From assembly GCA_038230955.1 (NCBI GenBank), contig JBBRMG010000002.1:1199-65198 (forward strand): a stretch of DNA of 64,000 bases. The letters run 5' to 3'. The DNA comes from Candidatus Doudnabacteria bacterium. GTDB taxonomy: Bacteria > Patescibacteriota > Doudnabacteria > UBA920. The notes under the pieces were generated by a model. It did not search any database and was not told the origin of the DNA. It saw nothing but the letters and a program-made list of their open reading frames with translations. A program made the translations under genes and the position numbers. Shown in pieces: positions 53,246-64,000 of the stretch; within the stretch, counting starts at the first letter, position 1; every line of letters starts with the position of its first letter.

Positions 53246-53322
53246 TTGGTGCGCGTGCCTGGATTCGAACCAGGGACCGTCAAGGTATAAGCTTGATGCT
53301 CTAACCAGCTGAGCTACACGCG
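53246..53322 (-). tRNA. tRNA-Ile with anticodon UAU (CCA encoded)
   Basis: Manual cloverleaf: GCGCGTG acceptor, D-arm TAGCTCAGCTGGTTAGAGC, anticodon stem TCAAG/CTTGA with loop CTTATAC, T-arm CCTGG-TTCGAAT-CCAGG, then A-CCA. Confidence 0.8.
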
Positions 53323-53362
53323 CTTAATTTGCCTATACATTATAGCGAAACCAGCCAGCCTT

Positions 53363-58900: not shown

Positions 58901-60244
58901 ATGGCAGAAGAAACATTAATTGAAGCTCAGACAACAGAAGGCGTAAAGCCGGAAGTTCAAGCTGTGAACACTGGTGTCATTACTGGTGATGCTGGTGCAC
59001 AGACCATGACTGATCTCATTGGCAGTGGTGCCGAAATCAAGGTCCTCAAAGCGGGCGACATGATTGAAGGAACTTTAATTACCGTTGGTAAGAATGAAGT
59101 TTACATTGACCTGGTTGGATACGGTGTTGGCGTAGTTCGTGGCCGGGAATTGTATGACGACCAAGCTACTCTCGCCTCTTTAAAACCTGGTGACCAAATT
59201 TTTGCGTCAGTTGTTGAAACTGAAAATAAAGACGGCAACGTTGAATTGTCATTGCGCCAAGCCGGACAAGAACGGGTATGGCAGAAATTACGTGACCTTA
59301 TGGATAGCAAAGAAATTGTATCAACCAAAATTTTGGCAGCCAACAAAGGCGGTCTTATGGTTGAGATTAACAATGTGATTGGTTTCTTGCCGGTATCCCA
59401 GTTGTCTTTGGAGCACTACCCTCGTGTTGAAGAAGGCGACAAGAATCGCATTCTGTCCGTGTTAAACACATATGTTGGGAGTAACTTTAATGTCCAAATT
59501 ATTACCGCTGACTCCAACGAAGAAAAACTGATCGTTTCTGAAAAGGCTGTATTTGAACAAGAAATGGAAGGCAAGTTGTCTCAGTTGAAGATTGCCGATG
59601 TTGTTACCGGTCAAGTCACCGGCGTTGTCGACTTCGGTGTATTCGTAAAGTTTGGTGAACTGGAAGGTTTGGTTCACATTTCCGAACTAGCCTGGCAGCG
59701 TATTGAAAATCCGAAAGATTTGTACCATGTTGGTGATTCAGTCACTGCAAAAATTATTGCTATCGACAAGGGTCGCGTATCTCTGTCTATTAAGCAACTC
59801 CAGCCAGATCCATGGCAGGAGTCGGTGAAGAAGTATGGCATTGGACAGGTAGTCAAAGGGACTATCTCCAAAGTTATGCCATTCGGCGTATTCGTTGAAT
59901 TAGATAAAGACATTCAAGGCTTGGCTCATTTAATGGAGCTGTCTCACGAGCCGGTAAAGTCCGCAGATGAGGTTGTAAAACCGGGCGAAGAATACGAGTT
60001 CAAGATTATTTCCATTGAACCGGCTGAGCATCGTTTGGGTTTGTCTATAAAGCAATTAACTGAAGCGCCGAAAAAGGCTGAGGGTGAAGCGGTTACCGAA
60101 CCTGTGGCCACAGAGACTGCGGCTCCCGAAGGTGCTGAAGAAGCTGCTCCTGCCATTGAAGAGGTAGAGAAAGCAAAAGCAGAAGAGACCTCTGCAGAGG
60201 AAGCTCCGGCGCCTGAAGTTAAAGAAGAAGTCAAAGCCGAATAA
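58901..60244 (+). CDS. rpsA: 30S ribosomal protein S1 (four S1 domains, acidic tail)
   Basis: Repeated S1-domain pattern (GTLITVGKNEVYIDLVGYGVGVV; GQVTGVVDFGVFVKFGELEGLVHISE; GTISKVMPFGVFVEL). Confidence 0.9.
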   Translation: MAEETLIEAQTTEGVKPEVQAVNTGVITGDAGAQTMTDLIGSGAEIKVLKAGDMIEGTLITVGKNEVYIDLVGYGVGVVRGRELYDDQATLASLKPGDQIFASVVETENKDGNVELSLRQAGQERVWQKLRDLMDSKEIVSTKILAANKGGLMVEINNVIGFLPVSQLSLEHYPRVEEGDKNRILSVLNTYVGSNFNVQIITADSNEEKLIVSEKAVFEQEMEGKLSQLKIADVVTGQVTGVVDFGVFVKFGELEGLVHISELAWQRIENPKDLYHVGDSVTAKIIAIDKGRVSLSIKQLQPDPWQESVKKYGIGQVVKGTISKVMPFGVFVELDKDIQGLAHLMELSHEPVKSADEVVKPGEEYEFKIISIEPAEHRLGLSIKQLTEAPKKAEGEAVTEPVATETAAPEGAEEAAPAIEEVEKAKAEETSAEEAPAPEVKEEVKAE

Positions 60245-60261
60245 CATACGATAGAAATTTA

Positions 60262-60292
60262 AAAAGCCTCACTATTATAGTGAGGCTTTTTT
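60262..60292 (+). terminator. rho-independent terminator of rpsA
   Basis: gcctcac-tattata-gtgaggc followed by tttttt, abutting the 3' end of the convergent tRNA-Leu. Confidence 0.7.
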
Positions 60293-60378
60293 GGTGCCCG
60301 AGGTGGGACTTGAACCCACATGCCTATTCGGCACGACATTTTAAGTGTCGCGAGTATAACCAATTTCTCCACTCGGGC
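60292..60378 (-). tRNA. tRNA-Leu (anticodon UAA), type II with long variable arm, CCA encoded
   Basis: GCCCGAG acceptor, anticodon stem CGACA/TGTCG with loop CTTAAAA, variable arm TGCCGAATAGGCA, T-arm GTGGG-TTCAAGT-CCCAC, then A-CCA. Confidence 0.85.
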
Positions 60379-60856
60379 TTATTGTTTTACGCTTGCCTCT
60401 ACCGCGATATGTAGGAGTTAAGCTGTGACAGTTTGGGCAAAGAATTCTTAGATTCTCCATGCGATTATCGTGACGGTCCCCATTAATATGGTCTAACTCT
60501 AGAGGAGTATATCCATCAACGGTCTTTTCCGCCCAACCGCAATGTTCACAGTATCCAGGCTTCATTCCGGCCGCTATCAGTCTGGGTTTGAGTTTGTAGC
60601 TTTGATAGTAACTATGGCTAATCAATATCTCACCAAACGTTCTTTGGGGCTTACCAACGCCACTCATTCCTTTATTCCATGCCTGACCGGTAAAATGAGT
60701 AGTCTTGATTTTATACTGAACAATATATTTCTTTAGCTGATCATAGTTACCGCCAGCTGGACGTAATTTTAACCGAACTAAAACCTGTCTATAACTTTTA
60801 CTATTATAGACTGCATTTCTTAGTTCATCAATTGTCCAAGACCTTTTTCTATTCAT
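60341..60856 (-). CDS. HNH endonuclease (free-standing, homing-endonuclease-like)
   Basis: CEHCGW...LELDHINGDRHDNRMENLRILCPNCHS zinc-finger HNH motif. The 3' end overlaps tRNA-Leu by 38 nt. Confidence 0.8.
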   Translation of the reverse strand: MNRKRSWTIDELRNAVYNSKSYRQVLVRLKLRPAGGNYDQLKKYIVQYKIKTTHFTGQAWNKGMSGVGKPQRTFGEILISHSYYQSYKLKPRLIAAGMKPGYCEHCGWAEKTVDGYTPLELDHINGDRHDNRMENLRILCPNCHSLTPTYRGRGKRKTISPSGEIGYTRDT

Positions 60857-60911
60857 ACATATAGTATGCCTAAGGTCTGATCAAATTATGTTAAAGAACT
60901 TATCAAGCTTC

Positions 60912-60986
60912 TGGAGGTGCGAGCGGGAATCGAACCCGCGCATAGAGGTTTTGCAGACCACCGCGTTACCATTTCGCCATCGCACC
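60912..60986 (-). tRNA. tRNA-Cys (anticodon GCA), U73 discriminator, CCA encoded
   Basis: GGTGCGA acceptor, anticodon loop CTGCAAA, T-arm GCGGG-TTCGATT-CCCGC, then T-CCA. Confidence 0.8.
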
Positions 60987-61033
60987 ACGTTTGGATAAAA
61001 GCTTACATATTGTAGCCGACTAGCGCATAAGAT

Positions 61034-61065
61034 TCAAGAAACAAAAACCCCCGCTTCGTAAGCGG
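61034..61065 (-). terminator. rho-independent terminator
   Basis: cccccgctt-cgt-aagcggggg with flanking A/T tracts, after the 61086..61871 gene. Confidence 0.65.
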
Positions 61066-61085
61066 GGGAAAAATATAAATGTAGG

Positions 61086-61871
61086 TTACTTTTTTACCAG
61101 TTCTGCAGACCCTGCCAATGCAGTGTGCATTGTGTTGCCGTTATTGCTTACACGATCATAAGCTACTTGAGCAGACTGAGTCCACATATGATTTAACTGG
61201 ATCAACAAAGCTTGGTTGTTTCCAACCCAGTGGTTGGAAGCTTTCCCAGGACAAGGTTGTTTGTACAAACCACACATTTGCACCAGGGACATATCAGAGT
61301 ACTTTACTGCTGACTTGCGTGGATATTCGGTTAAGAAGTTATCCATGCTGACGATACCTTCACAGGTATTGTTGCCCATTTTCCATAATCGACCTCCACC
61401 TATTCCCCAATAGTTATATGTACCAGGAAGGGAGTGAAGTCCGAGACCACTTTCAGCGTTTGCCAGCGACAAAATTTTGTCAGCATTCTTCAGGTCGACT
61501 AACGTATCGACACAGTTGGCGAACGGCGAACCTCGGCTAGTTAAGTAATTGTGGAGGTTGTCTTTATATGTGTTTTTGGTTTGGAAATCCAAGTCATGAG
61601 CGGCCAATTCAGCGTAAGCTAATGACGGAATTTGTGATAGCTGGGCTACTTCTACGTTAGAAGCTGCTGCGACCACGATTTGGTCTTCGTTTGCAGGATT
61701 TGGTATTTGTCCTTTGACTTCAAAAACTTGAGCCGTCTTACCTTCATTCTGTAAGCTGAAATCAGCTTGGGCTACTAAATGGGGATATAGAATCCACACT
61801 AGAACCGGGATAAAAGCGAGAAACTGGATGCCTTTATCGATTGCAGAACCAAGGTTCAAGGAAGCTTTCAT
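61086..61871 (-). CDS. secreted hypothetical protein (possible cell-wall hydrolase)
   Basis: Signal/TM N-terminus. Cys-containing soluble domain (NYWGIGGGRLWKMGNNTCEG). No confident family. Confidence 0.45.
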   Translation of the reverse strand: MKASLNLGSAIDKGIQFLAFIPVLVWILYPHLVAQADFSLQNEGKTAQVFEVKGQIPNPANEDQIVVAAASNVEVAQLSQIPSLAYAELAAHDLDFQTKNTYKDNLHNYLTSRGSPFANCVDTLVDLKNADKILSLANAESGLGLHSLPGTYNYWGIGGGRLWKMGNNTCEGIVSMDNFLTEYPRKSAVKYSDMSLVQMCGLYKQPCPGKASNHWVGNNQALLIQLNHMWTQSAQVAYDRVSNNGNTMHTALAGSAELVKK

Positions 61872-62257: not shown

Positions 62258-63436
62258 ATGCAATCGATAAAATTTTGTTTCATAGTGACTTTGTTGTTTG
62301 TGTTCCCTAACAATGTTTCAGCGGCTGGTGTTCATCATGCTAGAGTCTGTAGCGTTGCTAAAAAAGGAGGGCTAGCAAGTTGTAATGCTCAAGTTGTGGT
62401 TGATGCACAAGGCCATCCGTTATTTAGGTCTGTTCCACTAGGGTTTAGCCCTCAACAATTGCGTAGTGCTTACGGTGTGAGTGGGCAGGCTAATACTCCA
62501 TCTGTTGTAGCCATTGTTGATGCTTATGATGACCCTACTATCAAGAAAGACTTGGATATGTTTAGTCGGAAATTCGGGCTGTCCATATTACCTGATTGCC
62601 AAGGCCTGCCCACTAATGCGTTGCCCTGCTTTACTAAAATGAATCAACGGGGCAAAAAGGCTTTGCCCGTCCCTAATGCTGGGTGGGCCATGGAAATAGC
62701 TTTAGATGTGGAAGCAGTACACGCATTATGCGAAAATTGTTCAATATTATTAGTGGAGGCCGACTCTCCGAATACAAAAAATTTGCTGTTTGCCGAAGAC
62801 ACAGCTGTTGCGGCGGGTGCTCAAGTGATATCTAATTCATGGGGAGGTCCCGAATTTGTAGGGGAAGTTACATTGGACAGCCATTTCAAACAAACAGGTA
62901 TCGCCTATGTATTTAGTAGTGGTGATTCGGGTTATGGAGTACAATATCCGGCAGCCTCACAGTTTGTAACGGCTGTGGATGGTACTAGTTTATTCATGAG
63001 TGGAATGTCTTACAAAGACGAGAACGCTTGGAGTGGTGCTGGTAGTGGCTGTTCCATGTTTGAACCAAAGCCATTGTGGCAAAAGGATGGGCAATGTTCC
63101 GGACGGACAGTGGCTGACGTTTCAGCAGTGGCTGATCCCACTACGGGGACGGCAGTCTATAGCTCTACTAGTCCGAATGGGAAAAAAGGCTGGTTTATGG
63201 CAGGCGGCACCAGTTTAGCAGCACCGATAGTGGCGGCAATTTATGCCATGGCGGGAGATATTACTGGTGACATAAGGGCAAACAGCGCTCCCTATCTCCG
63301 AGGATCAAAGAAAAATTTGCATGATGTATCTGGCGGCAAAAATGGTGATTGTTCATTCAATTACCTTTGTGAGGGAGTAACGAAATACGATGGCCCGACG
63401 GGGCTAGGCAGTCCAAAAGGCCTGGGAGCGTTTTAG
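62258..63436 (+). CDS. secreted serine peptidase of the subtilase clan (S8/S53, sedolisin-like)
   Basis: Signal peptide. AIVDAYDDP (Asp), ISNSWGGPE, GGTSLAAPIVAAIYA (Ser). Confidence 0.7.
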   Translation: MQSIKFCFIVTLLFVFPNNVSAAGVHHARVCSVAKKGGLASCNAQVVVDAQGHPLFRSVPLGFSPQQLRSAYGVSGQANTPSVVAIVDAYDDPTIKKDLDMFSRKFGLSILPDCQGLPTNALPCFTKMNQRGKKALPVPNAGWAMEIALDVEAVHALCENCSILLVEADSPNTKNLLFAEDTAVAAGAQVISNSWGGPEFVGEVTLDSHFKQTGIAYVFSSGDSGYGVQYPAASQFVTAVDGTSLFMSGMSYKDENAWSGAGSGCSMFEPKPLWQKDGQCSGRTVADVSAVADPTTGTAVYSSTSPNGKKGWFMAGGTSLAAPIVAAIYAMAGDITGDIRANSAPYLRGSKKNLHDVSGGKNGDCSFNYLCEGVTKYDGPTGLGSPKGLGAF

Positions 63437-63534
63437 TAATTGCGTTTAGATAAAAGAAAATGCTCCACTTTTGTGAGGCATTTTCTTTTGTAGCTCTTGG
63501 TGGAGGATGTTAGAACTGAGGTGAGTCTTACAAT

Positions 63535-63979
63535 CTAGACCAAAAACACCCTACTTTGATATTCGGGCAATAATACAAGTTCAAATCCATGTCCAACATT
63601 ATCCAGCTTGCCTTTATATTTTTCTGAATAGTGCGGAATAATTCTAATTGGAAGAATTCCCAATCCTTCAATAATACTATTCGCATTCGGGCTATAGCAA
63701 AATTTTCCTAAGATATTGGCTCCCGCAGATTCTCCAGCGATTACTTTTCCATTTAATAACTCTCTTGAAATTGGGAATGTCTTAAGTGTTTCGAGACTTC
63801 AAAGTCTTGTCTCCAATAAAGTATATAACATCTGCCGATTGTATTTGTTCGATAAAATTTTGTTCATTGGCAACCTCAAATATCAGCTGGTTTTGTGTTT
63901 TGGTTTGGTTGAATTCTGCTTTTACTCTTGTGGTATTCTCATTCACCGTTTCAATTTCTTTAGCAAAACAAACTAACAA
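63535..63979 (-). pseudogene. peptidase S51 (PepE/dipeptidase E-like) gene with an apparent frameshift
   Basis: Frame A (63535-63798) encodes ...RELLNGKVIAGESAGANILGKFCYSPNANSIIEGLGILPIRIIPHYSEKYKGKLDNVGHGFELVLLPEYQSRV. Frame B (63782-63979) encodes the N-terminal piece ending ADVIYFIGD. The two frames switch near 63785-63800. Confidence 0.4.
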
Positions 63980-64000
63980 TATCTTAGAATTTTGTGGGAC

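Follow-up and report, generated by a model that had tools for sequence, protein, structure and literature searches.

A likely homing endonuclease gene of the HNH family at the 5' edge of tRNA-Leu(UAA) in Candidatus Doudnabacteria

We studied a stretch of 64,000 nucleotides (nt) of DNA from a Candidatus Doudnabacteria bacterium (positions 1,199 to 65,198 of contig JBBRMG010000002.1, assembly GCA_038230955.1), which we call the window, and within it an open reading frame (ORF) for an HNH endonuclease that lies between the genes for tRNA-Cys(GCA) and tRNA-Leu(UAA). An initial annotation had placed the ORF between these two tRNA genes and on the same strand, and ARAGORN, Rfam, and the list of ORFs all agree with this. 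ARAGORN reports three tRNA genes in the window, and the two that flank the HNH ORF, both on the minus strand, are also found by Rfam with scores of 65.8 bits (tRNA-Cys) and 55.4 bits (tRNA-Leu). Both flanking tRNAs are complete, so the gene is intergenic, and it is the only HNH copy in the whole window. The features of the locus are listed below, starting upstream of tRNA-Cys; empty sites are loci in related bacteria that have the same two tRNA genes without the HNH gene between them, and other loci are cited by our L numbers.

61009..61037, minus strand: promoter-like site TTGAAT-17-TACAAT, 5' of tRNA-Cys (9/12 matches in a consensus scan)
60912..60986, minus strand: tRNA-Cys(GCA), the resident upstream partner of the Cys-Leu(UAA) pair (ARAGORN; Rfam)
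60379..60911, minus strand: 533-nt segment that is missing from empty-site relatives (alignment A3, filled vs. empty alleles)
60857..60911, minus strand: cassette leader, 55 nt (alignments A1 and A3; upstream profile of 25 loci)
60341..60856, minus strand: HNH endonuclease ORF, 171 amino acids (Pfam HNH_3 and HNH; PHROG 10822; PADLOC; AlphaFold2)
60379..60381, minus strand: TAA that abuts base 1 of tRNA-Leu, the usual stop position of the family, out of frame here (alignment A1)
60292..60378, minus strand: tRNA-Leu(UAA), intact but atypical for its clade (ARAGORN; Rfam; identity tables; alignment A4)
60261..60291, no strand: terminator-like hairpin of 14 base pairs with A/T runs on both sides (terminator scan and reading of the sequence)

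To compare this locus across relatives, we picked the relatives by their neighboring gene for ribosomal protein S1 (73-92% identical), a choice that is blind to the HNH gene. Six of the loci chosen in this way were informative (L287, L289/L290, L291, L295, L296, and L292), while L294 was uninformative. Five of these six close relatives (with S1 75-86% identical) are empty, and their tRNA-Cys and tRNA-Leu genes are separated by 10 nt (L287), 1 nt (L289), 6 nt (L291), 16 nt (L295), or 1 nt (L296). One of these, L291, is a complete genome of 943 kb (CP064996.1). The empty relatives have kept the gene order GyrA/Lactamase_B_3/S1 ... tRNA-Leu/tRNA-Cys/SLT-like, and tblastn with E values of up to 10 found no trace of the HNH gene in the five empty spacers. 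The sixth locus, L292, is also from Doudnabacteria and is filled, with an HNH gene that is 57% identical to the window's. In alignment A3, filled and empty alleles differ by a clean indel that runs from the end of tRNA-Cys to base 1 of tRNA-Leu, so that the window has an extra 533 nt (60911-60379). The extra segment consists of the 55-nt leader and of the HNH coding sequence as far as the TAA that is out of frame, and the leader is kept among filled alleles (TTCTTTAAC...TTGATC...; alignments A1 and A3). So the gene is not universal at this position: most of the relatives have a precise empty site with a spacer of 1-16 nt in the same synteny, which is the kind of allele that the initial annotation had proposed to look for. 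Because empty sites with conserved synteny are found beside filled relatives, the HNH gene is, as judged from these alignments, a patchily distributed insertion rather than an ancestral gene that is fixed.

The pair of tRNA genes is much more widespread than the insertion. We scanned species-representative genomes for the tRNA-Leu motif GGYATACN7ACTTAARAT and obtained 120 matches, which are mostly from outside the Patescibacteria and do not give an estimate of occupancy for close relatives. Among these are 105 loci with tRNA-Leu(UAA), and the HNH gene is present at just one of the 105 (L272, in a Peregrinibacteria genome). In 26 loci, tRNA-Cys is directly followed by tRNA-Leu(UAA) without the HNH gene, with gaps of 4-817 nt; these loci are from Planctomycetes, Omnitrophota, Bdellovibrionales, an insect endosymbiont, and many Patescibacteria (for example, gaps of 8 nt in Taylorbacteria, 24 and 63 nt in Moranbacteria, and 12 nt in Parcubacteria). 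Similarly, in glyW-cysT-leuZ of Escherichia coli K-12 the spacer between the Cys and Leu genes is 12 nt. Given that E. coli and many phyla hold the pair, the tRNA-Cys/tRNA-Leu(UAA) pair is ancient.

We also note that a filled locus (L003) and an empty one (L296) are both from assembly GCA_034680565.1, with S1 proteins that are 90% identical. The presence of filled and empty alleles in one metagenome assembly implies that carrier and non-carrier populations coexist in a single sample, which would be a natural setting for homing. Separately, other Patescibacteria genomes have other cargo in the Cys/Leu(UAA) spacer (L199:1580-2049, L216:5964-6591, L253:3995-4406, and L284:754-1570). The ORF in the spacer of L199 has a NUDIX box; a spacer locus from Peregrinibacteria has a 240-amino-acid ORF on the opposite strand; and two spacer loci from Saccharibacteria have ORFs of 153 and 132 amino acids with no homology detected. 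This spacer appears to be a recurrent insertion point.

When we started from the HNH protein instead, by scanning metagenome contigs, we found 80 loci with 55-67% identity, which together with the window and L001-L006 gives 87 loci. (Close bacterial relatives and close ones from metagenome contigs are 55-78% identical to the window's protein.) tRNA-Leu(UAA) lies directly downstream of the HNH gene in 84 of the 87; two of the three exceptions end at the edge of a contig, and one (L022) is real. Upstream, tRNA-Cys(GCA) lies 49-200 nt 5' of the ATG in 50 of the 87 loci, or 51 if we count one at 670 nt, and at a few loci its place is taken by tRNA-Lys, Gln, Glu, Gly, or Leu. The tRNA-Leu genes of the HNH loci vary through compensatory changes in their stems. 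Full-length homologs with 35-48% identity are found on phage contigs, and in 80 viral loci there is a tRNA gene within 150 nt in 51 and a neighboring tRNA-Leu in 38. For example, in Citrobacter phage Michonne, which is a cultured phage, the annotated coding sequence of the HNH gene stops 1 nt before tRNA-Leu in an array of about 20 tRNA genes. At the level of gene order, these counts show that the HNH family is tied to tRNA-Leu(UAA) in bacterial and metagenome contigs and that the phage homologs are found in tRNA arrays.

The tRNA-Leu that adjoins the HNH gene is itself unusual. We compared tRNAs within the clade that shares synteny around S1, using five HNH-positive and five HNH-negative loci. 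Identity to the clade's usual tRNA-Leu is 74-81% in all five HNH-positive loci and 88-100% in all five HNH-negative loci (Mann-Whitney p about 0.01, with lineages that are not independent). The window's tRNA-Leu is 74% identical to that of the empty-site relatives. Pairwise identities of tRNA-Leu(UAA) were as follows.

Both loci without HNH: 89-100%, mean 93.6%
Both loci with HNH: 70-90%, mean 76.2%
One locus with and one without HNH: mean 76.4%

The identity of S1 (about 83%) and of tRNA-Cys (88-92%) is equal across these classes of pairs. Relative to the clade's usual tRNA-Cys, the tRNA-Cys of HNH-positive loci is 88-100% identical (mean 95.6%) and that of HNH-negative loci is 76-100% identical (mean 93.3%). 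L004 and L296 illustrate this: they share 91% identity in S1 and 100% in tRNA-Cys, but only 79% in tRNA-Leu. At the DNA level, the HNH-linked tRNA-Leu genes (73-78%) have diverged like coding DNA, while identity is 92-100% for the other tRNAs of these loci. The changes in tRNA-Leu are compensatory in every stem, and the D-stem pair C11-G24 is replaced in five of five carriers (alignment A4). The Rfam tRNA scores of the HNH-linked genes (51-56 bits) are well above threshold, and those of empty-site genes are 56-62 bits. The nearest relatives of the HNH-linked tRNA-Leu genes are outside the clade, and several of these are in other HNH-bearing loci; the window's tRNA-Leu is closest to a Magasanikbacteria tRNA-Leu without an HNH gene (89%). 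This mixed pattern suggests, but falls short of proving, that the HNH-linked tRNA-Leu is of foreign origin. A divergent tRNA-Leu is what homing on the neighboring gene predicts, either by co-conversion or through a resistant allele in the carrier.

As for the protein, it passes the Pfam gathering cut-offs for HNH_3 (PF13392; 26.7 bits vs. 24.8) and for HNH (PF01844; 24.5 bits vs. 21.4). It matches the profile of PHROG 10822, which comprises phage HNH endonucleases, with E = 9.9e-46 over residues 1-158, and its best PADLOC model is "homing endonuclease" (E = 2e-19), which is not a defense system. We rejected the NCBIfam identities ZorE and IscB, as their scores are far under the cut-offs and reflect only the common HNH motif. 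The zinc cysteines (C103, C106, C140, and C143) and the catalytic residues of the HNH motif (H123, N135, and H144) are invariant across 63 homologs. In the AlphaFold2 model (mean predicted local distance difference test score of 84), an N-terminal three-helix bundle (residues about 9-47) is followed by a flexible linker and then by a zinc-bound beta-beta-alpha-metal HNH domain with a strand-strand-helix core (residues about 100-150). Foldseek matched the model only to the HNH domains of McrA, ScoMcrA, and Cap5, and gave weak hits of the helix-turn-helix type for the N-terminus; no Pfam family matched the N-terminal part.

The family is large. There are over 5,500 homologs (as clusters at 90% identity), mostly from Patescibacteria, and clustering at 50% identity gave 186 clusters at E values of up to 1e-30. 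One of the database homologs carries the name "F-TflIV." The closest homologs have 156-163 amino acids and cover only 92% of the query. Some representatives of the family (P0242, P0093, P0243, P0245, and others) have 280-350 amino acids and align with the query over two or three segments. This suggests that the N-terminal three-helix module is repeated in tandem in them, in two or three copies, as one would expect of a modular domain that binds DNA. Rates of nonsynonymous change (dN) are 0.2-0.4 and synonymous change (dS) is saturated; for the pairs that can be measured, dN/dS is 0.04-0.34, with a median of 0.20. These rates and the invariant residues show, for the family's sequences, a conserved catalytic core under purifying selection and an ORF that is kept by selection rather than a decayed relic.

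The initial annotation had also noticed that the last 12 codons of the ORF overlap tRNA-Leu and that the stop codon TAA is the tRNA's anticodon triplet, and the coordinates confirm this. The overlap is 38 nt. Codon 160 spans the 5' end of the tRNA, and codons 160-171 and the stop are inside it; the anticodon begins at position 36 of the tRNA (60343), and the stop is at 60343-60341. L001, L003, and L004, which are syntenic relatives, have their stop (TGA or TAA) directly against base 1 of tRNA-Leu, and the closest homologs end at about 158 amino acids. Alignment A1 accounts for the difference. With a slash for the boundary of the tRNA, L003 reads AAA AAA TAA/GCCC and the coding end of L001 reads TGA/GCCC, while the window reads AAA ACA ATA A/GCCC; the window has 7 nt (ACAATAA) where L003 (AAATAA) and L004 (TTATAA) have 6. 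Because of this one additional base, the abutting TAA is not in frame, and translation runs on to the anticodon, which is the first in-frame stop. Residues 159-171 (13 amino acids) are a read-through tail that is encoded by the tRNA and is unmatched in homologs. The 1-nt insertion may be real, or it may be an assembly error.

Such overlaps are common in the family. Of 84 related loci, 19 have no gap (0 nt) between the stop and the tRNA, 32 have a gap of 1-22 nt, and 33 have an overlap of 1-131 nt, so the ORF runs into tRNA-Leu in 39% of the family's loci. It ends at the anticodon in about 4 of the 84, including the window. Because any ORF that enters tRNA-Leu(UAA) in that frame must end there, the overlap and the stop at the anticodon are, as we read alignment A1, an incidental by-product of a change of frame by 1 nt. 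A phage homolog with 40% identity (L123:3001-3480, a contig from IMG/VR) also enters tRNA-Leu(UAA) by 38 nt and ends at the anticodon.

We infer that tRNA-Cys, the HNH gene, and tRNA-Leu are co-transcribed from a site upstream of tRNA-Cys. The promoter-like site at 61037-61009 is just past the terminator hairpin of the upstream gene (61068-61048); our terminator scan found none between tRNA-Cys and the hairpin at 60291-60261, which is beyond tRNA-Leu and is common to tRNA-Leu (minus strand) and the convergent S1 gene (plus strand); and the spacing between ORF and tRNA is zero in relatives. The cassette could have its own promoter as well. In many relatives, a -10-like box (TGnTAnAAT) has its end 5-8 nt ahead of the ATG and a Shine-Dalgarno sequence is lacking (profile of 25 loci), which suggests a promoter within the cassette and a leaderless mRNA. 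Another promoter-like sequence, TTGATG-17-TATAAT, is a strong match (10/12) and is at 60803-60831 on the minus strand of the window, inside the HNH ORF and in its 5' part; from this site, tRNA-Leu could be transcribed independently of translation of the nuclease.

Taken together, we think it quite likely that this is a free-standing HNH homing endonuclease gene that has its own leader and that has inserted at the 5' edge of tRNA-Leu(UAA), in a spacer that otherwise has just 1-16 nt. The initial annotation had proposed a selfish insertion of the homing endonuclease type in a tRNA locus, and the empty sites in five of six relatives support this. Under this model, the predicted nuclease would nick or cut HNH-free alleles in or beside the tRNA-Leu gene. 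Repair from a copy that bears the HNH gene would then copy the cassette in, probably with the linked allele of tRNA-Leu, and a co-copied tRNA-Leu would explain why the HNH-linked tRNA-Leu genes are divergent while tRNA-Cys is unaffected. The HNH gene would be transcribed with the tRNAs, and cleavage by RNase P at base 1 of tRNA-Leu would set the 3' end of its mRNA. In the window, this cleavage would remove the in-frame stop, so each transcript could give either a mature tRNA-Leu or a complete mRNA for the nuclease. An either-or fate of this kind might keep the expression of the nuclease low, as has been proposed for segB of phage T4.

Several observations weigh against this interpretation. The sample of relatives that were chosen by S1 is small (six informative loci), and among the source "genomes" several are metagenome assemblies. 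A gene that the host has adopted would be expected to show purifying selection just as much. The window leader's own promoter motif is weak and is under the threshold of our promoter scan, and the 13-amino-acid read-through tail could impair the window's copy. The contrast in tRNA-Leu rests on about four independent HNH-positive lineages. Across all Patescibacteria, tRNA-Leu and tRNA-Cys both saturate at about 72-76% identity, and the contrast is lost. Finally, the identity of the HNH gene and the identity of tRNA-Leu are weakly correlated (Spearman 0.18), so strict co-inheritance of nuclease and tRNA is unsupported.

A more speculative idea, which we consider doubtful but worth stating, is that the mobile unit is a cassette of two genes: the leader and the HNH gene together with their own tRNA-Leu(UAA) allele. 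This cassette would replace the clade's usual tRNA-Leu(UAA) gene with a linked and resistant allele, and the target of the nuclease might be in the D-arm (C11-G24). Such a cassette would amount to a gene drive on an essential tRNA gene, common to the chromosomes of Patescibacteria and the tRNA arrays of phages.

Could the window's copy be a decaying relic, even if the family is still mobile? The frameshift at its 3' end would then be the start of degeneration, and the protein would no longer be made or active. The usual stop is indeed 1 nt out of frame, with a gain of 13 unrelated residues; the promoter-like motifs in the leader are weaker than those of relatives; and processing by RNase P would leave an mRNA without a stop codon. 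However, residues 1-158 are intact and every invariant residue is present, and the extra base could be an assembly error. Also, since 39% of the family enters the tRNA, C-terminal tails appear to be tolerated. We think that decay is unlikely, although it is the best of the competing explanations.

Another possibility is that the host has adopted the nuclease and keeps it for some benefit, such as cutting incoming phage DNA at tRNA-Leu genes or competing with related strains. Strong purifying selection and a very large and well-conserved family (over 5,500 clusters) would fit with this, as would an HNH domain that resembles the defense nucleases McrA, Cap5, and ZorE. Because the phage relatives are in tRNA arrays beside tRNA-Leu, such phages would carry potential targets. 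On the other hand, the gene is carried by only one of the six close relatives and by one of the 105 tRNA-Leu(UAA) loci from the motif scan, there is no partner defense gene, and the best PADLOC model is a homing endonuclease. The strict single site of insertion and the altered adjacent tRNA are what homing predicts. So adoption by the host seems somewhat less probable to us than decay.

It is also conceivable that the gene was present at this position in the clade's common ancestor and has been lost precisely and repeatedly. The order tRNA-Cys/HNH/tRNA-Leu is kept in many diverged loci, with tRNA-Cys upstream in 51 of 87, and the HNH gene must be old within the clade, given that identity to the window's gene is only 57-71% where S1 identity is about 83%. 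But the empty spacers of 1-16 nt resemble those of E. coli and many phyla, and they have no remnants of the HNH gene, even at a tblastn E value of 10. Furthermore, tRNA-Leu genes at empty sites hardly differ across the clade, whereas each HNH-linked one is distinct, and independent precise deletions would not yield this pattern. We therefore consider repeated loss to be very improbable.

The tRNA-Leu(UAA) genes of cyanobacteria and plastids have a well-known group I intron in the anticodon loop, and the window's ORF also involves this tRNA species and stops at its anticodon; nevertheless, we reject the idea that the gene is a remnant of an intron-encoded endonuclease as scarcely credible, because tRNA-Leu is uninterrupted with a full tRNA score, the ORF is upstream of the tRNA rather than inside it, and a search of 60150-61150 for intron families, including group I, found none at E values of up to 1.

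A homing endonuclease in a tRNA cluster would not be novel in itself: those of phages T4 and T5 are textbook cases. Free-standing endonucleases in tRNA clusters include SegB of T4 and, in T5, F-TflI and F-TflII as well as F-TflIV (PMC2330249), and others are found in the tRNA arrays of mycobacteriophages and plasmids (PMC5966550). The end of the segB ORF is the 5' processing site of the downstream tRNA-Arg, and the cut falls after the final sense codon and before the stop; this arrangement was proposed to throttle the expression of the endonuclease, and it is mentioned for the F-Tfl genes of T5 as well (PMC2330249). SegB also drives the preferential inheritance of the surrounding tRNA genes (PMC2330249). 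The window's gene is similar in that it is a free-standing endonuclease gene between tRNA genes whose ORF ends at the downstream tRNA, but SegB is a GIY-YIG endonuclease, acts between phages during co-infection, and has tRNA-Arg downstream. A passage of PMC2330249, citing Akulenko 2004, describes the F-Tfl proteins of T5 as free-standing, site-specific HNH endonucleases whose ORFs are among tRNA genes. The window's gene resembles F-Tfl/hegA in being a free-standing HNH ORF amid tRNA genes. It differs from hegA in that only residues 72-153 can be aligned (45% identity) and the N-terminal three-helix module is not in common, so there is no full-length homology. Also, unlike these phage genes, it is in a bacterial chromosome and at one fixed site.

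The phage genes of PHROG 10822 are closer. gp141 of Michonne has full-length homology (38% identity over 91% of the query) and the same layout. In these phages, though, the adjacent tRNA is not constant (Leu with several anticodons, Tyr, Phe, Trp, and others), and tRNA-Leu can have the HNH gene on either side. In the tRNA arrays of mycobacteria and mycobacteriophages, no other coding sequence is as widespread as HNH genes, and these have been associated with turnover in the repertoire of tRNAs (PMC5966550). Those genes are in large multi-tRNA arrays on phages and plasmids, and we liken them to the window's gene by their setting only. Bacteria of the Candidate Phyla Radiation (CPR) have LAGLIDADG homing endonucleases in the introns and spacers of their rRNA genes (PMC8172020, PMC7143001). 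These too are selfish endonuclease genes in stable-RNA operons, in the same group of bacteria, but they belong to another nuclease family, are mostly intron-borne, and are in rRNA rather than tRNA genes. When we searched full texts for such nucleases (HNH or homing) in connection with tRNA genes and with Patescibacteria or CPR, no paper that came up concerned the tRNA-Cys/tRNA-Leu element, as judged from its title and abstract. Relative to the known endonucleases of tRNA clusters, the additional features are the strict tie to tRNA-Leu(UAA), the home in chromosomes of Patescibacteria, and the divergent linked tRNA.

If our interpretation is correct, then an arrangement of the type known from T4 and T5 is very abundant in the chromosomes of Patescibacteria, where it adjoins the 5' edge of one particular tRNA gene. 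This would explain why gene callers report HNH ORFs that enter tRNA-Leu and why contigs frequently break at this locus. If tRNA-Leu is exchanged along with the nuclease, then a selfish element is turning over an essential translation gene in reduced genomes, and the tRNA arrays of phages and the tRNA operons of their hosts would draw on one pool of mobile nucleases. The natural pairs of filled and empty alleles could be used to define a new HNH specificity.

The neighborhood deserves a few comments. The initial annotation had described the adjacent genes as accessory, but the upstream gene of 261 amino acids is syntenic in relatives, where it has an SLT domain, and so it does not count as accessory. 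It had also named a frameshifted PepE, and the small ORFs in question gave no match to peptidase S51 in Pfam. The protein of 392 amino acids at 62258-63436 (plus strand) matches Peptidase_S8 (E = 1e-9). This gene and those at 63500-64000 are missing in the syntenic relatives; there, a cluster of tRNA-Gly/Phe/Val/Leu(GAG) genes lies beyond the SLT-like gene instead.

There are other unusual tRNA genes in the window and in a relative. A tRNA-Ile with the anticodon UAU, which is uncommon for a bacterial tRNA-Ile, adjoins gyrA in the window (53247-53323, minus strand) and is in the same place in L287, L289, L292, and L296. In the complete genome CP064996.1, ARAGORN reports a tRNA-like gene with a four-base anticodon, cgtc, between the genes for S1 and a trypsin/PDZ protease (L291:6386-6459, minus strand), which Rfam does not report at its gathering score. 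And about 3.5 kb upstream of the HNH cassette in L004, the ORF at L004:1-469 has a faint match to LAGLIDADG_3, so it may be a second homing-endonuclease-like gene nearby.

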